Shown here piece by piece: positions 24,120 through 40,707 of a DNA stretch of 64,000 nt; the first letter of the stretch is position 1, and every line of letters starts with the position of its first letter. Under the pieces are notes generated by a model that saw nothing but the letters and a program-made list of their open reading frames with translations, was not told the origin of the DNA and ran no database searches. The stretch spans positions 10,299 to 74,298 of the forward strand of contig CAJONC010000008.1 in the NCBI GenBank assembly GCA_905235675.1, written 5' to 3'. The translations under genes were made by a program, and so were the position numbers. This stretch comes from an uncultured Bacteroidales bacterium. Lineage in GTDB: Bacteria > Bacteroidota > Bacteroidia > Bacteroidales > UBA932.

Positions 24120-26060
24120 ATGAAGAACTTAATTAAATTTATGGCACTGGCTGCCATCATTCTTGTCTCCTGTACTAAGGAGAACAGCAATAACACAAAC
24201 CCTGAACCCGAAATTGTAAACGGGGCTCCGGTTCTTAAGGCGAGAATTGCCAACACCAAGACCAGCCTTGACGGACTTGCACTCAGTTTTATGGTCGGGG
24301 ACCAGATTACCGTGTTCAATGGAGTCAAAGATGAAAGCAATCATCACGGTGTCAGCCGTTATGTATGTACAGGAATCAGCGCCGGTGTCGCTACTTTTGC
24401 TTTTGATCCCGGGAACAGTGAGTGTGCAACTGTTGATGCCGACATCGACCCGCTGATTGCAACTCACCCTCAAAGGAGTGCTTCGACGGCAGAATATGAG
24501 GCATATGGGGCAGGGACGGTCAAAATACGTATGGTTGCCGGCCCTATAGATACTGACAACGGATTTGCAGCACCATCTCTTCCGATAATTGCCTGTGCGG
24601 ATGCTGGAGATGCTCTTGACTTCAATTTGACAGTAGGTTTGTTCGAAGTTGTACTGAAAGGTACTGCATCGATTGCCACTATTGCGCTTACTTCAAATCA
24701 AAACATAAATGGAGATGCTTCTGTAGATTATACTTCTGCAACTCCTGCTCTGACAATGATCGGAACAGGCAAGACAAACACCTACCGCTACAATCACGAT
24801 TCAGGGTCTGGCGTAACCAGCGGAATAGCACTGAATGAAAGCACCGGAGTCAAGTTCTATTTCGGACTGCCCGCAGGTACGCACAATGTGAAGTTTGTCT
24901 TCACAGATACCGACGGTAATACGATGACAAAGACTGCGGAAGGTCTCACGATAGAGAGAGCAAAAATAACAAGGAGCAAGAATGTCCTCTCCTTCGCTCC
25001 CGACGTAGCCCCGACAGTTAATCTCTCGGAAGGTGGCAAATATGCAAACTGCTATGTTGTAAAGGCTCCTGGCAATTATGAATTAGATGCCCGCAAGCCT
25101 GATGGCACCCTGGTGTCCGGAAGCAACGCCGTATGGGTATGGGCAAGCGGAGAGAAGTGCAATGGAGCCGCCGGCCTTCCTGTTACAATGATGAAAGATA
25201 TAGCCTATGACAACGACAAGATATCGTTCTCGGTACCTGAAAGTTACGGTGTCGGCAATGTTGTTCTTGGTGTTGTTGATGGCAGTTCCAATCTGTTGTA
25301 TACCTGGCATATCTGGCTGACATCGGATGATATTGAGGACGTTACCGCAGGAGGCATTACTGTAATGGACCGTAACCTTGGTGCAGGAGCCCTGTACGAT
25401 GTTGCGCTTGCAACAAATGCTCCCCTGCAGGCAGGAAAGGGCAATTTCTATCAGTGGGGCCGCAAAGACCCGTTCCCTGGAGGACGGAACAGTTCGACAG
25501 GAACCATAGAAGCTACGCCATTCGGGACCACAAACAGCCAGTATAACGTCATAAATACTGCGGCATCCATCAATAATGTTTCGGAATGGGCTGCGTCTGG
25601 CGACTTGGGTGGTGTGACCGCGGAGGATGGCGCAAGCCATCCGGTTACGCTCGCCGCCTCCGCCAAAGTGCCCGGATATGATTCTTCCGACAAGACAACT
25701 CCCTGGTGCGGGAGAACCAATGCCAATCCCTGCCCTTATGGCTACAGAGTTATGAACAAGAGCGAATTCAGTACCCTTATCGGTTTGGGTGTCGTTGCAT
25801 CCAATTACAATAACTTCGGGCAGGTGAAACTTGCAGATGCAGTTATTCTTCCCAGGGCTGGATTCAGGGCAGGCACTACCGGTGGCTCGCAGTATGGGCA
25901 GACTTCCGCCCGCTATTATTGCAACGATGTAAGCGAAACGGAGGCTACCAAGGGCTATGCCTATAAGTTCGACTGGTCCAATACCAGTACGTATTCATCT
26001 TATACCGAAACGACATACAATGCCTACAACGCCTGCAGTGTCCGTTGTGTAAAACAGTAA
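24120..26060 (+). CDS. lipoprotein: fimbrillin-like N-terminal domain plus FISUMP (Fibrobacter succinogenes major paralogous, TIGR02145-like) C-terminal domain
   Basis: Lipobox ILVSC. C-terminal pattern ITVMDRNLGA...FYQWGRKDP...NPCPYGYRV...EF..L...LPRAGFR...ARYY...CSVRCVK. ATG at 24120 is preferred over the GTG at 24096. Confidence 0.7.
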   Translation: MKNLIKFMALAAIILVSCTKENSNNTNPEPEIVNGAPVLKARIANTKTSLDGLALSFMVGDQITVFNGVKDESNHHGVSRYVCTGISAGVATFAFDPGNSECATVDADIDPLIATHPQRSASTAEYEAYGAGTVKIRMVAGPIDTDNGFAAPSLPIIACADAGDALDFNLTVGLFEVVLKGTASIATIALTSNQNINGDASVDYTSATPALTMIGTGKTNTYRYNHDSGSGVTSGIALNESTGVKFYFGLPAGTHNVKFVFTDTDGNTMTKTAEGLTIERAKITRSKNVLSFAPDVAPTVNLSEGGKYANCYVVKAPGNYELDARKPDGTLVSGSNAVWVWASGEKCNGAAGLPVTMMKDIAYDNDKISFSVPESYGVGNVVLGVVDGSSNLLYTWHIWLTSDDIEDVTAGGITVMDRNLGAGALYDVALATNAPLQAGKGNFYQWGRKDPFPGGRNSSTGTIEATPFGTTNSQYNVINTAASINNVSEWAASGDLGGVTAEDGASHPVTLAASAKVPGYDSSDKTTPWCGRTNANPCPYGYRVMNKSEFSTLIGLGVVASNYNNFGQVKLADAVILPRAGFRAGTTGGSQYGQTSARYYCNDVSETEATKGYAYKFDWSNTSTYSSYTETTYNAYNACSVRCVKQ

Positions 26061-26064
26061 GAGT

Positions 26065-26199
26065 ATGAAAAAAGAATATATGATCCCTCAGGCGGAAGCC
26101 TTGCAATTTGATCCGCAGATGGTTATTTGCGGAAGTCCGGAATCGGATAGTGTCGATAGTATGACCAAAGATACGGTAAACAGTATAATTTGGTATTAA
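26065..26199 (+). CDS. unannotated 44-aa small ORF (paralog of 23965-24105)
   Basis: MKKEYMIPQAEALQFDPQMVICGSPESDSVDSMTKDTVNSIIWY. Shares the pattern MKK.Y..P....L...PQ..IC.S and a Trp near the C-terminus with the first small ORF. It lies 13 nt upstream of the second FISUMP lipoprotein. Confidence 0.45.
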   Translation: MKKEYMIPQAEALQFDPQMVICGSPESDSVDSMTKDTVNSIIWY

Positions 26200-26212
26200 A
26201 ACATAGGCCAAG

Positions 26213-28192
26213 ATGAAAAAGATATATAGTTTATTGATATTTGCCGCACTCCTCGCTGTTTCTTGCGGGAAGAGTGTCGTAGAGTCTCCTGCCGTCGAAC
26301 CCGAGCCGGAACAGGAAACGGTGTATCCTGAAATTCAGGTTGCGCTTTCGGTGGATACCAAGACAACCATTACCGATAATGGCGATTCGTTCAGCATTGC
26401 ATTCGCAGTTGATGATGACATTGCCGTTTTCAATGGTGAGAAAGATGAGGACACCCATCTGCCCTGCCGCTATCGTTGCAACAGGATAGATGGTGGAGTT
26501 GCATATTTCTCATATAATCCTACTACCGATGCGGAAAGAGAAATTGTGCCTGATACTGAGTTGGCGATAATTGTCGCCACCTATCCATACCGCGGGACTA
26601 CCACCTGCGGGTATGAAACTTATGGCGACGGAACAGTCAAGATCAGAATGGTCAATGCTCCCTCCAGTTCATCTTCCGGTTTTGCAAAATCGGCACTACC
26701 CCTCATAGCATATGCAGATGCCGGAGAGCAACTCACTTTCCATCATACCGTAGGCTTGATGCAACTCAAACTCGAGGGTAGTGAAGTCAATATCAAGAAA
26801 ATAGCCGTGACTTCCGACAAGAATATCGTTGGTGATGCCAAAGTCGCATATGCTGCATCCGAACCTTCTCTGGAAGTGGTGGGCGAAGACGGAACCGGCG
26901 GAATCAGCAATTTCAAGAAAGCGACGTATACCTTTAACGATGCAAGCGGATTGCCGCTTGATTCCGATGGGGTAGATTTCTATATTGGACTCCCTGAAGG
27001 CACTCACAATCTCAGTCTTCTCATTACGGATGCAGACGACAATACTATGCTTATCTCCGCTCCGTCAGTACCTATATCCCGTGGAGTCGTGATACCTACG
27101 ACTCTCACTTACACGGCGGATCCCCTGGCAAACCTTACCAATCTTTCCGAATTCGGGCACTTCGCCAATTGTTATGTGGTAAGCAAAGCCGGCAACTACT
27201 GCTTCAACGCCCGTAAGCCTGACGGGGCCCTGGTGAGTGGTGACAGCGCTACTTGGGTGTGGGCGAGCGGAGAAGCATTCAATTCCGCAGCCAACCAGAC
27301 CGAAGCCAGACTGAACGCCAAGATGATGGACAACATATCATTGAGAGGGGGCAAAATCTACTTTAATGTTCCTTCTGATTTTACTGTTGGAAACGTTGTT
27401 CTCGGAATTGTTGATGGCAGCAGTAACCTGCTTTATACTTGGCATATCTGGCTGACCTCGGATGACATTGAGGACGTTACCGCCGGAGGCATAACTGTAA
27501 TGGACCGCAATCTTGGAGCAGGAAAAGCATGTAATCCCGCAGGTGAAACTAATGCTGATTGGCAACTTACGAGGGGTAATTATTACCAATGGGGCAGGAA
27601 AGACCCTATACTCGGGATTAGAAATAATACCGCAGAAAACACCTCCAGTGCGTATGCTTCCGGCAATAGTTGGTACAGTGTCCTAAATACGGATATTAGC
27701 AATGTTTCTGCGTGGAGTTATAACGGAGATTTTGGGGGAGTGACTATTGAGGATGGCGCAAAATATCCGGTAACGATGGCTGCTTCAAAAAAAGTACCCG
27801 GGTATATTGCTGACGATAAGTCCACGCTTTGGAGTGAGCGGCCCAATGCAAATCCATGTCCGTATGGATATACGATTATCAGTAGCTCTCAGTTCGAAAC
27901 TTTGATTGATGCCGGGACTCCCACTGTATCTGTGTACAATTCGTTCGGACTTGTAAATCTTGGAGGTGGTATTATGTTGCCAAGAGCCGGGATGCGTTAC
28001 GGCTCTGATGGTACGGCCCGGTCCATTACAACCGATGCGAGATATTATACCGATAATCCCGGTACTAGTGATGGACAAGGATATGCATATAGGTTTATAA
28101 CAAGTGGTTCGACATTTTCTTCGGCTACACTTACATCATACGATGCCTACAACGCCTGCTCTGTCCGCTGCGTGAAGATTGGAGGTATATGA
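26213..28192 (+). CDS. lipoprotein: fimbrillin-like N-terminal domain plus FISUMP C-terminal domain (paralog of 24120-26060)
   Basis: Lipobox LLAVSC. Same architecture as its paralog, including a 38-aa block that is 100% identical. It ends ...SVRCVKIGGI at a TGA that is in frame with the next gene. Confidence 0.7.
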   Translation: MKKIYSLLIFAALLAVSCGKSVVESPAVEPEPEQETVYPEIQVALSVDTKTTITDNGDSFSIAFAVDDDIAVFNGEKDEDTHLPCRYRCNRIDGGVAYFSYNPTTDAEREIVPDTELAIIVATYPYRGTTTCGYETYGDGTVKIRMVNAPSSSSSGFAKSALPLIAYADAGEQLTFHHTVGLMQLKLEGSEVNIKKIAVTSDKNIVGDAKVAYAASEPSLEVVGEDGTGGISNFKKATYTFNDASGLPLDSDGVDFYIGLPEGTHNLSLLITDADDNTMLISAPSVPISRGVVIPTTLTYTADPLANLTNLSEFGHFANCYVVSKAGNYCFNARKPDGALVSGDSATWVWASGEAFNSAANQTEARLNAKMMDNISLRGGKIYFNVPSDFTVGNVVLGIVDGSSNLLYTWHIWLTSDDIEDVTAGGITVMDRNLGAGKACNPAGETNADWQLTRGNYYQWGRKDPILGIRNNTAENTSSAYASGNSWYSVLNTDISNVSAWSYNGDFGGVTIEDGAKYPVTMAASKKVPGYIADDKSTLWSERPNANPCPYGYTIISSSQFETLIDAGTPTVSVYNSFGLVNLGGGIMLPRAGMRYGSDGTARSITTDARYYTDNPGTSDGQGYAYRFITSGSTFSSATLTSYDAYNACSVRCVKIGGI

Positions 28193-28210
28193 AGGGGTGG
28201 CATCGCCGGT

Positions 28211-29062
28211 ATGGATGCTGACGAGGTGACAACTGACATAAAGGTCAAGACTGCTTCCTATAACGTATGGAGTCAGGGCGGTCGCTCCGGTGCGGACGAA
28301 AAATATACCTGGTCCAAGGCCGGGCCTGCCGTGATAGAGTGTATCCAGAGCAACGACGCCGACATAGTGGCCCTGCAGGAGGTTAACTCTTTATCGGCCG
28401 GGCTCCATAGCGGGCTGGACAGTTACGCCTGGGTAATATACACCGAGGACGGCATAGAGACCAACCTTATTGATGATCTTGACCACCAGTCTCCAGTAAT
28501 ATTGTACAAGAGCAGCCTGTTTTCCCTGCAGAGCAGCGGATGGATAGATTTGGGAGAAGATACACAGAAGCCTTACTGGGTAGTTTATGCCCAGTTAAGG
28601 CACAGCGCCAGTGGGAAAGATCTCTGGGTTTTCAGTACCCATCTCAACAACGAGCAGGACTCCGCCCTTCAGACAAGTCAGGTGAGCACTTTGCTCTCAA
28701 ATGCTGAAAGCCTCGTACCGGAAGGGACAGCATCGCTTATAATGGGCGATTTGAACATCTTCCCGATTGACAATAGCGGAAACGAAATAGCCAATTACGC
28801 CGCCATCACCGGTAGCAGATGGAAAGATGCATACGACACGGTATCGGCCAGAGAAGGCAACTACGTGGCCAAAGGACTCGCCAGCGGCACGATGCACAAC
28901 ACCTCTAAAGGAGGGCTGTCCTCTGTCCGAACAGACCATATACTTGTTTCGGATGCTACCATATTGTCATATGGGGTTGACCGTAGCAAATATGAGAACA
29001 CCGACGGTACGGCAATTTGGCCTTCGGACCACTTCCTGATTTATTCAAGCGTAAGTTTGTAG
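28211..29062 (+). CDS. endonuclease/exonuclease/phosphatase (EEP) family protein, no signal peptide
   Basis: EEP motifs are intact: ASYNVW, VALQEV, MGDLNI, PSDHFLI. Same reading frame as the preceding gene, separated only by a TGA plus 6 sense codons. Confidence 0.8.
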   Translation: MDADEVTTDIKVKTASYNVWSQGGRSGADEKYTWSKAGPAVIECIQSNDADIVALQEVNSLSAGLHSGLDSYAWVIYTEDGIETNLIDDLDHQSPVILYKSSLFSLQSSGWIDLGEDTQKPYWVVYAQLRHSASGKDLWVFSTHLNNEQDSALQTSQVSTLLSNAESLVPEGTASLIMGDLNIFPIDNSGNEIANYAAITGSRWKDAYDTVSAREGNYVAKGLASGTMHNTSKGGLSSVRTDHILVSDATILSYGVDRSKYENTDGTAIWPSDHFLIYSSVSL

Positions 29063-35650: not shown

Positions 35651-35667
35651 TCACTAATTTGAAATCA

Positions 35668-38600
35668 ATGAGAATCAAAGCATTCCCTGCAGCCATTTTC
35701 ACCGCTGCCTTCTTATTGATTGTTTCTTGTGCAGGAAGACAGACTTCCGTGTCGGACAATCTGCGACAGTCTTTCGCAAATCCTCCCCAAAGTGCCCGGC
35801 CTATGGTATGGTGGCACTGGATGAACGGCAATATTTCTCCGGATGGATTAAGGAAAGACATTATGTGGATGCATCGCATCGGCATCGGCGGATTTCATAT
35901 CTTCGATGCCGGTTTGGATACTCCACAAATAACAGAAAGTCGCCTCGATTTTATGAGCCCCGAGTGGAAAGAAACTTTGAACGGTGCGGTTGCACTTGCC
36001 GACTCGCTCGGGATGGAGGTTGCGGTGGCAGCCTCTCCGGGATGGAGTTGCACCGGAGGCCCATGGGTGAGCGAAGAAGACGCTATGAAGAAACTGGTCT
36101 GGAGAAATATGCAGGTAGATGGAGGCAAGCATTATCACGGTCCGCTTCCCGAGCCATATACTATGAGCAGCAGATTCCAGAATGTCCCTCTGCCTTATGA
36201 ACACAATCATCATCAGGATGGCCCGATTCCGGAGTGGTATTACAAGGACATCGCTGTCTATGCTGTCAGATTGCCGTCATCTTTTGCATCTATGGAGGAA
36301 CTTGGGGCAAAGGTCAGCGACAATGGAGGCAATGGGCCATTCTACTGGATACAATATGAATTCCCGCAGCAGCAGAGTTTCAGGGCTGTATCTGTCGTGA
36401 ACGCAAAGGCGAGAAGCGGAGGGCACGCAATCCCGGCTAAATGCAAGGATTCTCTTCAGATCAGTGACGACGGACTCCATTTCCATACTTTGTGTGGCAT
36501 TACAGTCGGGGCGGCCCAGCAGCAGACAGAATGCATTCCCTATGCCGAGGCTCGCTTTTGGAGGCTCAAACGACCGAATTCCGGATATGCTGCAATCAAT
36601 CCGGAAGATTATATCCTGCATAAACATACACCCATAAATCACTATGAAGAGAAAGCCGGTTTCGCCTATACCTGCGACCTTATGAATTATCCGACACCTC
36701 CGGAGGCGGAAGCCTGTGAGGTGATCGATATTACCGCCAATTACAAGAATGGAATACTTGACTGGGACGCCCCTGAAGGCAGATGGATGATTTATCGTTT
36801 CGGTTGTTCGCTTACCGGCAAGAAGAACCATCCGGCATCTGCCGAAGCAACCGGTCTTGAGGTGGACAAACTGGATAAGACTGCCTTTGCCCGTTATCTG
36901 CACCACTACCTCGATATGTATAATGATGCGACCGGGGGAAGACTTGGTAAAACAGGTATACGATATCTGATGATTGACAGTTACGAATCCGGAGCCCAGA
37001 ACTGGACGTCCTCGCTTCCGGAAGAATTCAAGTTGAGAAGGGGGTATGATATGATGCCCTGGTTGCCTGCTGTCGCTGGTGTCGTCATCGGAGATACGGA
37101 GCAGACAGAACGATTCCTTTGGGATTTCCGTCGCACCATCGGAGAACTCTTTGCCGAGAACTACGATAATGCTACGGAGATAGTTCGGCAGGACTACGGT
37201 ATGGATGGCATCTTCATTGAGTCACACGAACACGGAAGAAACTGCCCGGCGGACGGAATGTCAATCAAGAAAAGTGCATCTTACCCGATGTCGGCAATGT
37301 GGATGGAGGGGAGTGGCGCTGTGAACCGTGTCGCTGAAGGTAAGGCGGATATACGGGAGTCTGCATCAGTAGCCCACATTTACGGGCAGAACCTTGTTGC
37401 AGCGGAATCTCTGACGATTTCCGGCCTTGGAGGAAAAGCATTTAGTTATTATCCCGGCAATTTGAAGCACGCGGCAGATTTGGAGATGGGTGCCGGGGTA
37501 AACCGTTTCGTCATACACGAAAGTGCACATCAGCCTTCGGACGATAAAGTGCCCGGAATAGGCCTCGGACATTACGGACAGTGGTTCAACAGGCACGAAA
37601 CGTGGGCTGAACTCGCCGGACCGTGGATTGACTACCTGAGCCGCAGTTGTGCACTTCTCCAGCAGGGCAGGTATGTCGCTGATTATCTCTATTACTATGG
37701 CGAGGATACCAATGTCACTGCACAGTTCAGCCAATCCGAACTCAAGGCCCCTTTCGGCTATGGGTACGATTTCATCGGGCCGGAGGCTCTGCTCAAAGAG
37801 TTGAAAGTCCGGCAGGGAAAACTGGTAACTTCTACCGGTATGGAGTATTCTACTCTATTTGTGGGAGGTGATGGCTTGAGAATGTCGAAAGAGGTGAGAG
37901 AACGTATCAACTCATTCAAAAAATCCGGGATAAGGGTATTGGAGGGGACAGAAGTGCATTATGTGAAGAAAACTATCGAACCCGACCTGATTCTTTCTGA
38001 CGCTGGTGATATGCAGTTTGTGCACAGGACTGCCCCGGATGCAGAGATATATTGGATATGCAATTCTATGGACTGCCTACGCACTCAGGAGGCATCTTTC
38101 CGGATCAGCGGACGAAAACCGCGCCTCTGGCATCCGGAAACGGGAACAATCAGCGACCTGCCTTATCGTTTTGCTGATGGCAGGACATATATTTCTTTGA
38201 AGTTCGCTGGGGATGAAGCGTATTTCGTTGTTTTCGAAGAACAGGTTAAGGACTCTTCCTTTGATGTTGCGGAAGAAGTCTTGATAGACAGTACTCCTGT
38301 CTGCGGTCCGTGGGAAGTGTCTTTCAACCTGAAGACGGGAGCCCCTGCGCATATCCTTATGCCTGAACTGTCATCATGGACCGAGTCTTCCAGCCCTGAA
38401 ATCAAATATTATTCCGGAACGGCCAAATATAGGAAGACTTTCAACTTCCGTCCCGACGGGGGCCGTTATGTTCTGAATCTTGGGAAGGTAGGCAGTATCG
38501 CTTGCGTGAATATGAATGGGCAAGACTTGGGCCAGTGTTGGAAATCTCCTTATGAGATGGATATCACCGGGGCTCTTCGCGCCGGGGAAAATACAATGGA

Positions 38601-38757
38601 GATATCAGTAACAAATCTATGGGTGAATCGTTTGATAGGAGATGCCGGCAGGAAAAACCGGAAGACATATTATTCGTATGATTTCTATAAAGCAGACGAC
38701 CCTCTGCTCCCTTCGGGCTTGATGGGGCCGGTCAGCATTGATAAATATGACCTTCAT
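35668..38757 (+). other. domain: GH106-like (alpha-L-rhamnosidase-like) glycoside hydrolase region (approximate bounds)
   Basis: PPQSARPMVWWHWMNGNISPDGLRKDIMWMHRIGIGGFHIFD at the N-terminus and NLWVNRLIGD...LPSGLMGPV at the end, as in the Bacteroidales GH106-like family. Recognised from memory. Confidence 0.5.
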
Positions 38758-40707
38758 CCCCGGTTCTCTGATTTTGATAATCCGGATTTTGCCAAAATGA
38801 TTTTTGACAATCCCGTATTTGCCAGTCTGAATGCAACTCCGTACGATGAATTGGGGCGCCCCGATTCTGATACTCCGGCTCCAACAGGCTACAAGCCGGT
38901 ATATATCAGCCATTATGGACGTCACGGGGCGCGGTCTGGCAGCCCCGGGAGCAAGGACCTCCAAAGTTTTATAAATCTTGAAAAAGCATTGACCAATGCA
39001 TCAGTTGCCGGGATTCTCACCCCGGAAGGGAAGGAATTGCTTGTGGAGGTTCGAAAAGTTATTGCGGCTACGGACAATATGGAAGGGCGTCTGACCGAGC
39101 GAGGAAAGCGGGAACATTCGGGCATTGCAGAAAGGATGTATCGGCGTTTTACTCCGGTTTTCAAAGATGGGAGCAGAAAGGTTTATGCCCTTGGAAGCGA
39201 ATATCCTCGCTGCCTGATCAGTATGGCTTCTTTTACTGGACAGTTGAACAAGATGGATCCGTCTCTTGAGATAAAGTTGAATTCCGGCCCGGAATATCAG
39301 AAAATCATACACAATACGGCCACTCCGGAAGTGAGGGAGAAGCGCATCCGTGCGATTGACTCCTTGCTTGCGCTTGTCCGTCCCGAGACTAAAGAACTGA
39401 TGGACAGATTGTTTACGGACCCCGATGCGGCAAGCGATTTTGTGCCGGATCCGGTAGAAATGTCACGCTGGATCTTCCGTGCCGGAAGAATTTCAGGTGG
39501 CTTTGATATAAAAGAGAATATTTTCCGGCATCTGCCATTCAAGACTCTGTATGCCTGGGCAGATTTCTATAATTCCACAATTTATATCGGACACGGAAAT
39601 TCCTTTGAATTCGGGGATGACCGTATGTCGCAGACCAGACTGTTGGTAAACGACATCGTAAACCGGGCCGATGATGCACTCAATACGGGCAATTTGGCGG
39701 CGGATCTGCGCTTCGGGCACGATTTTACTCTGCTTGCTTTATGTGCAAGGATGGGGATGGCTGGTGTTAGTGAAAGGTACGATTATGAAGGATCAAGGAA
39801 GCACTTCATTTGCAGTAAACTGATTCCTTTTGCCGCTAATCTGCAACTGGTTTTCTATAAAAAGAAAGATGCTCCTGTGCTGGTAAAATGCTTGTTGAAC
39901 GAAAGAGAAATGACCATCACCGGGCTGGAGCCTGTGAATGGGGTCTATTACAGATGGGAAGACTTGCGCGCCACTCTTGTTCCATCTGATGATTTCTGTC
40001 TGGAAGCACACCGTGGAATCAGCAACCGGTATCCCGAGAACACTATCCTTGCTTTCAAAGAAGCAGCATCGGTTCACAGATATGTGGGGATGGAAACCGA
40101 TGTGCAGATGACTTCCGACGGGGTGCTGGTTATAATGCACGATGATACGGTAGAACGCACTACTGACGGAATCGGAATGGTGTCGGACTATACCTGGAAG
40201 GAACTCTCGCGCCTCCATATTGACGGAGGATATGGCTGGGACGAAAGATTTAAAGGCAAACTTCATATCCCATTGTTTACCGATTATCTCAAGATCTGCC
40301 GTGAAGGCGGTCTTGTTCCATATGTGGAACTGAAATTGCTGACCGACGAGGGTATCGCCAAGACCATAGAGACGCTTCATTCAGAGGGATTCTCGGATGA
40401 TGATTATGTCTTGACTTCATTCAACAGACATTATGTTGATTATGCCGGAACTCTCTGTTCTGCAAAAAGGGAGTTTATGAAGGGCGGACGTTTCACGCAC
40501 GAAGATCTCGCATCTATGGTTGGCTCCGGGCTTGTAGTACGACCGGATTGTCGCAAGATAAATCAGGCTCTGGTGGACGAGTGCCGTGCGCTGGGTCTTG
40601 AACTGGAAGCATATGGCCTCCCTGTTGGGGATGCGTCTTTGCTTGCGAACCTGAAGGCGTGGGGAGTGAAAGGCGTAACCTGCAATGATTGGCTGAATTT
40701 ATTATGA
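35668..40707 (+). CDS. 1,679-aa tri-domain lipoprotein: GH106-like glycosidase plus histidine acid phosphatase plus glycerophosphodiester phosphodiesterase
   Basis: Lipobox LLIVSCAG. See the three domain sub-features below. It is one uninterrupted ORF. ATG at 35668 (track TTG at 35659). Confidence 0.85.
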   Translation: MRIKAFPAAIFTAAFLLIVSCAGRQTSVSDNLRQSFANPPQSARPMVWWHWMNGNISPDGLRKDIMWMHRIGIGGFHIFDAGLDTPQITESRLDFMSPEWKETLNGAVALADSLGMEVAVAASPGWSCTGGPWVSEEDAMKKLVWRNMQVDGGKHYHGPLPEPYTMSSRFQNVPLPYEHNHHQDGPIPEWYYKDIAVYAVRLPSSFASMEELGAKVSDNGGNGPFYWIQYEFPQQQSFRAVSVVNAKARSGGHAIPAKCKDSLQISDDGLHFHTLCGITVGAAQQQTECIPYAEARFWRLKRPNSGYAAINPEDYILHKHTPINHYEEKAGFAYTCDLMNYPTPPEAEACEVIDITANYKNGILDWDAPEGRWMIYRFGCSLTGKKNHPASAEATGLEVDKLDKTAFARYLHHYLDMYNDATGGRLGKTGIRYLMIDSYESGAQNWTSSLPEEFKLRRGYDMMPWLPAVAGVVIGDTEQTERFLWDFRRTIGELFAENYDNATEIVRQDYGMDGIFIESHEHGRNCPADGMSIKKSASYPMSAMWMEGSGAVNRVAEGKADIRESASVAHIYGQNLVAAESLTISGLGGKAFSYYPGNLKHAADLEMGAGVNRFVIHESAHQPSDDKVPGIGLGHYGQWFNRHETWAELAGPWIDYLSRSCALLQQGRYVADYLYYYGEDTNVTAQFSQSELKAPFGYGYDFIGPEALLKELKVRQGKLVTSTGMEYSTLFVGGDGLRMSKEVRERINSFKKSGIRVLEGTEVHYVKKTIEPDLILSDAGDMQFVHRTAPDAEIYWICNSMDCLRTQEASFRISGRKPRLWHPETGTISDLPYRFADGRTYISLKFAGDEAYFVVFEEQVKDSSFDVAEEVLIDSTPVCGPWEVSFNLKTGAPAHILMPELSSWTESSSPEIKYYSGTAKYRKTFNFRPDGGRYVLNLGKVGSIACVNMNGQDLGQCWKSPYEMDITGALRAGENTMEISVTNLWVNRLIGDAGRKNRKTYYSYDFYKADDPLLPSGLMGPVSIDKYDLHPRFSDFDNPDFAKMIFDNPVFASLNATPYDELGRPDSDTPAPTGYKPVYISHYGRHGARSGSPGSKDLQSFINLEKALTNASVAGILTPEGKELLVEVRKVIAATDNMEGRLTERGKREHSGIAERMYRRFTPVFKDGSRKVYALGSEYPRCLISMASFTGQLNKMDPSLEIKLNSGPEYQKIIHNTATPEVREKRIRAIDSLLALVRPETKELMDRLFTDPDAASDFVPDPVEMSRWIFRAGRISGGFDIKENIFRHLPFKTLYAWADFYNSTIYIGHGNSFEFGDDRMSQTRLLVNDIVNRADDALNTGNLAADLRFGHDFTLLALCARMGMAGVSERYDYEGSRKHFICSKLIPFAANLQLVFYKKKDAPVLVKCLLNEREMTITGLEPVNGVYYRWEDLRATLVPSDDFCLEAHRGISNRYPENTILAFKEAASVHRYVGMETDVQMTSDGVLVIMHDDTVERTTDGIGMVSDYTWKELSRLHIDGGYGWDERFKGKLHIPLFTDYLKICREGGLVPYVELKLLTDEGIAKTIETLHSEGFSDDDYVLTSFNRHYVDYAGTLCSAKREFMKGGRFTHEDLASMVGSGLVVRPDCRKINQALVDECRALGLELEAYGLPVGDASLLANLKAWGVKGVTCNDWLNLL
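38758..39990 (+). other. domain: histidine acid phosphatase (branch 2) (approximate bounds)
   Basis: YISHYGRHGARSGSP (RHGxRx motif, about 38920) and LRFGHDFTLLAL (HD motif, about 39715). Confidence 0.7.
39991..40704 (+). other. domain: glycerophosphodiester phosphodiesterase (GDPD) (approximate bounds)
   Basis: LEAHRGISNRYPENTILAFKEA...GMETDVQMTSDGVLVIMHDDTVERTTDG matches the canonical GDPD HRG / E.D / HD pattern. Confidence 0.8.

Follow-up and report, generated by a model that had tools for sequence, protein, structure and literature searches.

How does an enzyme without an export signal come to be encoded directly behind the stop codon of a lipoprotein gene, in the same reading frame, and is it still made? 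The question is raised by a 64,000-nt stretch of DNA from an uncultured Bacteroidales bacterium of the UBA932 lineage (assembly GCA_905235675.1, contig CAJONC010000008.1, positions 10,299 to 74,298), which we call the window. On its + strand, an open reading frame (ORF) at 26213..28192 translates into a 659-aa lipoprotein with a signal peptide, the lipobox LLAVSC, an N-terminal stalk and a C-terminal half with a predicted Ig-like domain and a predicted C-type-lectin-like module that resembles the FISUMP (Fibrobacter succinogenes major paralogous) family. It is the second of two paralogs; paralog 1 (24120..26060, + strand) has the same architecture, is 49% identical to it and terminates in SVRCVKQ-TAA, with no enzyme behind it. 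Paralog 2 terminates in SVRCVK-IGGI-TGA. The in-frame TGA (28190..28192, + strand) has A as its next base and is followed by the 18-nt spacer AGGGGTGGCATCGCCGGT (28193..28210, + strand), which is stop-free, in frame with both ORFs and reads RGGIAG. At 28211 begins the ORF of a 283-aa endonuclease/exonuclease/phosphatase (EEP) family phosphoesterase (28211..29062, + strand; PF03372). The two starts are 28211 − 26213 = 1998 bases or 666 codons apart, and the conceptual reading across the TGA is ...CVKIGGI-X-RGGIAGMDADEVTTDIK. The N-terminus of the EEP ORF, MDADEVTTDIKVKTASYNVW, has no hydrophobic stretch, and by inspection a signal or lipobox is found at the N-terminus of 11 of the 12 proteins encoded between 20439 and 42206, the EEP protein being the sole exception. 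A preliminary description of the locus had given the positions of the TGA and the EEP ATG, the shared frame, the SVRCVKQ and SVRCVKIGGI ends and the missing signal peptide and lipobox, all of which hold, and had proposed a fusion that was either broken or expressed by read-through of the TGA.

We compared the junction with orthologous DNA from one independent locus, L021, and from one near-identical sample. L021, the sole locus obtained from a metagenome scan, encodes an EEP with 88% protein and 86% DNA identity to that of the window. At its junction, ...VRCVKVDGL-TGA-AGGGGTGGCATCGCCGGT-ATG-GGT..., the stop occupies the same position, the spacer matches base for base and the ATG is shared. The contig of the second sample shows four differences over 28143-28900, none of them at the junction, and diverges upstream of 28143; it stems from the same study and is therefore weakly independent, and as contig sequence it leaves minor variants invisible. 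Four scans of genome contigs, with the EEP, the 24-nt junction, P0192 and an alignment of six orthologs, yielded no further junction DNA. At the protein level, VRCVK is followed by four final residues (IGGI, DGGI, VDDI or VDGL) in 11 of 12 clusters of paralog-2-type lipoproteins, the remaining cluster ending in VRCVKE, so that the tail keeps a constant length with variable sequence among orthologs. Of P0007 and P0016, the probable upstream partners of the EEPs in the lineages of P0038, P0191 and P0192, P0016 has a tail of two residues (VRCVKDI). Six EEP clusters of 283–285 aa (70–100% identity) share the same Met start without a signal. Met1 is present in all six, with variation at linker positions 2 and 4–8, an invariance that is partly built in because gene callers begin proteins at start codons.

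In the nucleotide comparison with L021, none of the 18 spacer bases is changed, whereas the adjoining 4 + 7 codons have changes at 12 of 33 bases (Fisher p 0.004) and the wider flanks at 18 of 93 (p 0.04), in a post hoc test on one sequence pair. The four-codon tail IGGI (28178..28189, + strand), an extension of the module beyond its usual VRCVK terminus, differs at 6 of 12 bases. For the EEP, we obtained dN 0.064, dS 0.586 and dN/dS 0.11 (Nei-Gojobori method, own script, the single pair of window and L021), and for the next two genes dN/dS of 0.13 and 0.06. No further stops or frameshifts were found in the EEP in this comparison. Residues N18, E57, H144, D180, N182, D242, D273 and H274, which we take to be the metal-binding and catalytic residues of EEP enzymes, are invariant across an alignment of 29 sequences. 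These comparisons show that the EEP is under purifying selection with its active-site residues intact, and hence that it is still made. They likewise show that the split is old, conserved and maintained, and not an assembly error, a fresh mutation or a decaying pseudogene.

The EEP ORF matches PF03372 with 49.4 bits (cut-off 24.5; E 6e-13) over residues 15–274, covering the whole 225-position profile. Its structure model (pLDDT 91.7) has 297 matches in the PDB at E <= 0.001, all of which, among the matches listed, are EEP enzymes; model and PDB matches agree on a four-layer alpha/beta sandwich. The closest structures are 3mpr, an EEP protein of Bacteroides thetaiotaomicron, and 4c1r, the B. 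thetaiotaomicron mannosyl-6-phosphatase Bt3783 (TM 0.77–0.81, E 1e-18 to 1e-19). Like the window protein, Bt3783 is an EEP enzyme, in its case of a Bacteroides, and is reportedly encoded in the yeast-mannan polysaccharide utilization locus (PUL). Bt3783 and 3mpr differ from the window EEP in that they share only 19% identity with it and are not split off a carrier. A PDB search by sequence returned just one weak match, to Ccr4.

Uninterrupted versions of the pair, for which the preliminary description had suggested a search, exist among relatives. We searched the read-through protein, with X at the stop, against 5.8 billion protein clusters and obtained 26 stand-alone homologs of 633–674 aa (42–73% identity) together with P0022, a protein of 989 aa with PF03372 that covers 96% of the query at 39% identity and has no stop in its linker. 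Across the junction, VRCVKIGGI-X-RGGIAGMDADEVTTDIKVKTASYNVW of the window aligns without a gap to VRCVRDNSV-M-AGGIAALPSKDVSVGGKLKVASYNIW of P0022. The linker from VRCV(K/R) to ASYN comprises 25 residues in both, GGIA is identical opposite the spacer codons (RGGIAG against AGGIAA) and the tail IGGI stands opposite DNSV. The alignment runs gap-free through the junction, which makes tail and spacer homologous to the translated linker of the fused relatives. An exhaustive HMMER search with the EEP alone revealed a second fusion, P0040 (952 aa, EEP at residues 636–951), and also proteins of ~600–640 aa in which a stalk is joined to an EEP domain. P0022 and P0040, both from metagenome protein catalogues, share domain order and lipobox with the window pair. 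Their EEP domains, however, contain three insertions that are missing from the window EEP, and they fall among the lipobox-bearing EEPs, outside the split clade. No close fused form was found among representatives of 15 billion proteins, where the next match below P0038 (86% identity) reaches at most 42%.

Other relatives keep the two parts as separate genes. A search of 401 genomes of the genus with P0022 identified two congeners, G075 and G318, in which a FISUMP-like gene is followed by a separate EEP gene after gaps of 87 and 45 nt, respectively. The gene order is that of the window, but the EEPs of G075, G318 and a further protein, P0039, have their own signal peptide and lipobox, whereas the window EEP has neither; they belong to the EEP subfamily of the window protein and are 32–34% identical to the window EEP and 55–59% to the EEP of P0022. 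Apart from the window's own genome, the 401 genomes contain no EEP closer than 41% identity. Of the full-length EEP relatives outside the split clade, 28 out of 30 begin with a signal or lipobox; three 5'-open fragments were set aside for this count, and the exceptions are P0041, which begins inside the signal/lipobox, and P0047, which starts inside the domain. Full-length forms without a signal are thus confined, among these relatives, to the window EEP and its close orthologs.

A tree of the EEP domains (33 rows, three fragments having been dropped before building) places the split trio in a clade with support of 100/100 on a long stem of 1.2 changes per column. This trio falls within a 93/92 group that also includes P0041 and a 100/99 clade, in which the fused P0022 and P0040 are interleaved with G075, G318 and P0039, each with its own lipobox. 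Because fused and separate forms interleave, fusion and separation have happened more than once on this tree, and the tree does not prove the direction of change. A fused ancestor is favoured because the linker is common to the window protein and P0022, one on either side of this division of the tree. The ancestral stalk–FISUMP-like–linker–EEP fusion that the preliminary description had envisaged is, in our view, well supported.

The stalk also occurs in other combinations. In P0034, P0036, P0037, L002 and L024-L029 the same kind of N-terminal stalk is fused either to EEP domains (~600–640 aa, several of them from congeners) or to GDSL esterases (921–943 aa, two with PF13149 by precomputed Pfam annotation). 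The stalk thus looks like a surface tether of general use, onto which different enzyme or binding modules can be swapped.

How, then, could the enzyme be made and reach its place of action? The EEP lacks an export signal, and nearly all of its relatives and its operon neighbours are exported; we infer from this that it is made by ribosomes coming from the upstream ORF. The start region points in the same direction. The 20 nt upstream of the EEP ATG contain 30% A+T, compared to a mean of 64% (standard deviation 17%) for 30 ATG starts in the window; only one of the 30 has less A+T, and none has less A. Between the paralog 2 and EEP ORFs, we found no promoter-like or terminator-like site. A predicted RNA hairpin (28188..28240, + strand) begins beside the stop, with the spacer as its 5' arm and the ATG in the tip. 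The window version is weak, whereas that of L021 (3011–3065) is very strong and reaches −31.4 to −32.1 kcal/mol with z −4.4 and rank 1 of 3915 55-nt windows. GC-rich start and ATG at the hairpin tip would both make initiation dependent on upstream ribosomes. The hairpin of L021 spans the stop, the spacer, the ATG and the first 8 EEP codons, and no other 55-nt fold in the 7.9-kb locus is as stable; all six base differences between its 3' arm and that of the window improve pairing with the invariant 5' arm. A search of 27900-28500 against Rfam at E <= 10 gave no match. The junction further contains a 10-codon mini-ORF in another frame (28189-28221), whose ATG overlaps the TGA (ATATGA) and whose closing TGA overlaps the first EEP codons; in L021 it has a GTG start and a longer frame, and it is probably due to chance.

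We tentatively favour the reading that useful EEP is made by putative read-through of the UGA, as a minor, full-length lipoprotein. An ancestral surface lipoprotein, composed of lipobox, stalk, Ig-like and C-type-lectin-like module, Gly/Ala linker and EEP, would have gained a UGA inside its linker. Most ribosomes would terminate at UGA-A and release a lipoprotein that only binds, and a minority would read through the UGA with a near-cognate tRNA, probably tRNA-Trp(CCA), yielding the full-length lipoprotein that carries the enzyme to the cell surface. There, the EEP may remove phosphate or phosphodiester groups from the target glycan of the PUL, a function suggested by the PUL setting and by Bt3783 as the nearest structural neighbour with a named function. 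The conserved stop would in this way set the ratio of binder to binder-plus-enzyme. As expected of programmed read-through, an open, conserved and selected frame stands behind the in-frame stop, frame and spacer being kept in L021 and dN/dS being 0.11. The A1 protein of phage Qbeta arises by UGA read-through of the coat gene, and there a leaky UGA followed by an in-frame extension gives a major short and a minor long product, as proposed here. Qbeta differs in being a phage in which read-through was demonstrated experimentally; in the present case read-through is putative, in a cellular bacterium, and would extend a lipoprotein by an enzyme domain. A more specific version of the proposal, in which the conserved UGA is a ratio-setting device, read-through by a minority of ribosomes is aided by the conserved 18-nt 3' context and by a hairpin that hides the internal AUG, and read-through is the sole export route for the enzyme domain, appears to us rather unlikely.

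Several findings weigh against read-through. (i) The ATG, present in 6/6 clusters within an otherwise variable linker, fits a working start codon, and the distance of 18 nt from stop to start suits termination followed by reinitiation. (ii) The long stem of the split clade and its three lost insertions could equally reflect a changed role, such as a cytoplasmic one. (iii) The case for a preserved frame comes from one independent DNA sequence, in an operon where in-frame junctions are frequent (5/16); the run of 25 identical nt at the junction is one of 25 runs of at least 25 nt in the 7.7-kb alignment of window and L021. (iv) TGA-A also ends five other ORFs of the window. (v) The hairpin of the window has the same topology as that of L021 but reaches just −16.1 kcal/mol (z −2.6, rank 2914 of 21316). 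(vi) ARAGORN finds a single ordinary tRNA-Trp(CCA), with a 5-pair anticodon stem whose top pair is G-U, and no suppressor tRNA. (vii) Selected read-through is known to be rare in cellular bacteria. Two further candidates were discarded. A tRNA-Trp with a 4-pair anticodon stem, an idea taken from PMC13092985, was rejected as ARAGORN draws 5 pairs. Ribosome hopping was dropped, as the codon before the stop is ATA in the window and CTG in L021, with no consistent landing codon.

The rival that survives best is gene fission with translational coupling, in which ribosomes terminate at the UGA, reinitiate 18 nt further on at the AUG and release a free cytoplasmic EEP in a new role. We consider it a serious though somewhat doubtful alternative. 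It fits the invariant Met next to variable linker positions 2 and 4–8, the ATG standing 18 nt after the TGA in both window and L021, and the long stem with three lost insertions. The fully conserved spacer contains GGGGTG 11 nt ahead of the EEP ATG, which may be read as a Shine-Dalgarno (SD)-like sequence; in Bacteroidota, however, SD pairing plays a minor part. Over a dS of at least 0.59 the stop has persisted, although most single-base changes of the TGA would restore the fusion. Moreover, coupled junctions, in the form of ATGA overlaps and gaps of 1–3 nt, are the rule in this operon. Against reinitiation, the EEP would be the sole cytoplasmic product among the 12 proteins of the locus and the only lineage without a signal, 28/30 other relatives being exported. 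Its start is GC-rich and, in L021, locked in a −31 kcal/mol hairpin, and no cytoplasmic pathway partner is evident in the locus. Read-through and reinitiation could both occur at the same junction.

That paralog 2 and the EEP are unrelated neighbours placed in frame by chance, the EEP having always been separate and the fusions elsewhere having formed independently, is improbable in our estimate. The shared frame itself says nothing against it. Among 16 adjacent + strand junctions of the locus, five keep the frame across a spacer without stops, SusC-TGA-6 nt-SusD and the 3' junction of the EEP itself among them, and because of this the shared frame and open spacer alone are no evidence beyond chance in this operon. 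Separate FISUMP-like and EEP genes in G075 and G318, as well as a tree that interleaves both forms and leaves the direction of change unproven, are also compatible with chance neighbours. What speaks against them is the linker, in which tail and spacer align to P0022 without a gap, at the same 25-residue length and with GGIA identical, and the observation that the separate EEPs of G075, G318 and P0039 all have their own lipobox while the window EEP has none.

The in-frame stop, the absent signal peptide and the existence of fused relatives would fit the broken gene that the preliminary description had considered. A recent nonsense mutation, an assembly error or a decaying pseudogene from which EEP is no longer made is nevertheless very improbable and largely refuted; we reject the pseudogene reading, as the same TGA is found in the independent metagenome contig L021 at 86% nucleotide identity of the EEP and in the second sample, spacer and ATG are kept in L021, dN/dS is 0.11 with no additional stops or frameshifts, six clusters have intact ORFs of 283–285 aa with the same Met, and the catalytic residues are invariant in the 29-sequence alignment. 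A frame-breaking spacer in orthologs, which would speak for two separate genes, is absent from L021, the one ortholog with junction DNA.

Designed decoding of the UGA, as selenocysteine or by a variant genetic code, is hardly credible, since the hairpin directly 3' of the UGA, the place of a bacterial selenocysteine insertion sequence, is matched by neither a tRNA-Sec or suppressor tRNA (ARAGORN, 96%-complete genome) nor a SelB above cut-off (best match 191.6 bits against 242.25, looking like an elongation factor) nor an Rfam family, and TGA is an ordinary stop here that ends 9/40 window ORFs, 6/9 of them as TGA-A, at positions matching homolog ends. Across the genome, 361 single in-frame stops have open frames of at least 200 codons on both sides (TAA 148, TGA 139, TAG 74); most of these are antisense shadow frames, which made the count uninformative.

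Read-through at this junction is plausible but unproven. What makes the case worth attention is an enzyme without its own export signal, whose relatives are exported, kept intact behind a conserved in-frame UGA down to 70% identity. Viruses and eukaryotes offer well-documented cases of selected stop-codon read-through, cellular bacteria hardly any that are known. If read-through is true, the junction would represent a read-through device occurring naturally in a bacterium, within a PUL of the gut or rumen; if reinitiation is true, it would cleanly illustrate how a surface enzyme domain can be put to cytoplasmic use once its gene has split. The known kinds to which it relates are the split gene and the leaky-stop extension. 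Annotation reports such pairs as two ordinary genes and so conceals their link. Literature searches on FISUMP proteins turned up, by their listing, no EEP fusion, one on UGA read-through in Bacteroides gave no such case by title or abstract, and one on EEP-type lipoproteins in Bacteroides polysaccharide utilization found no paper.

The binding part of paralog 2 had been called a FISUMP lipoprotein. The lipobox and the SVRCVK end are present in the paralogs, and a lipoprotein context with a C-terminal ...VRC(V)K end may be a FISUMP hallmark; the curated cut-offs of the family, however, are not reached. Paralog 2 has no FISUMP match in NCBIfam (E <= 0.1) or Pfam (E <= 10) and no family of either database at curated cut-off. 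Paralog 1 scores 19 bits with TIGR02145 (cut-off 41.65) and does not match PF09603 even at E <= 10; it is 48% identical to the stalk–FISUMP-like part of the fused P0022. The module of paralog 2 (residues ~310–655; 27140..28177, + strand) is predicted to consist of an Ig-like beta-sandwich followed by a C-type-lectin-like fold. Its residues 310–655 align end to end with a unit repeated three times in the distant homolog P0030, the last copy of which scores 28.5 bits with PF09603, as compared to 21.8 bits for P0032, another distant homolog, and a cut-off of 33.9.

We modelled residues 297–659 (pLDDT 90.9). Foldseek against the PDB gave nothing at E <= 0.001 for the FISUMP-like half. With VIA-align, residues ~418–659 reached Z 8.9 to 8oks_B (Bd2740-C; 96 residues, rmsd 2.8) and 8.6 to 8q4e_A (Lcl-C), followed by Z 7.3 to Mtd (1yu0), a protein diversified by a diversity-generating retroelement (DGR), Z 5.6–6.8 to dozens of C-type-lectin-like domains (CTLDs), Z ~6 to FGE-like proteins and Z 6.0 to TvpA (2y3c). 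These scores are moderate, as best Z of 7–8 are common for models without a clear match. Residues ~310–417 match Ig-like or cadherin-like sandwiches. On the basis of the model, a FISUMP-like binding module with a predicted CTLD fold is a defensible name for a module that appears related to FISUMP and is not a member by the curated test.

The same part of the gene, its C-terminal two thirds, is hypervariable between close lineages. Between window and L021 (L021 ~1440–2965), nucleotide identity is 46–73% over 26641–28142, compared to 79–88% in the stalk (26051–26640) and 82–92% from 28143 on. P0003 follows the window protein almost without change for ~335 residues before it diverges, and it is exactly upstream of 28143 that the second-sample contig parts from the window. 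This pattern looks like allelic cassette exchange in a putative ligand-binding CTLD module. The module resembles the variable CTLD proteins Mtd and TvpA in its predicted fold and is, as in those proteins, the variable part of the gene, here between strains; the variation spans ~1.5 kb, far beyond the size of a DGR variable region. According to PMC11661182, 43 DGR target proteins contain FISUMP domains. The two paralogs further share ~47 residues that are identical except for one V/I (GNVVLG.VDGSSNLLYTWHIWLTSDDIEDVTAGGITVMDRNLGAG; ~25290–25430 and ~27410–27550) and an identical 31-nt 3' end (26025–26055 and 28137–28167), placed twice in one contig, which suggests gene conversion between the tandem paralogs.

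The locus around the pair is a Bacteroidales-type PUL. It comprises an extracytoplasmic function (ECF) sigma factor with FecR, SusC, SusD, a Big_2 protein, a protein with a weak pectate-lyase-like match (E ~0.8), the two stalk lipoproteins, three EEP proteins, a GDSL esterase and a GH35-like enzyme. A lipoprotein of 1682 aa, encoded at 35659–40707, combines a GH106 alpha-L-rhamnosidase with a weak histidine-phosphatase match and a GDPD glycerophosphodiesterase domain. The co-occurrence of this GH106–GDPD protein with three EEP proteins and a GDSL esterase tentatively suggests a rhamnose-containing glycan with phosphodiester substituents as the target of the PUL.

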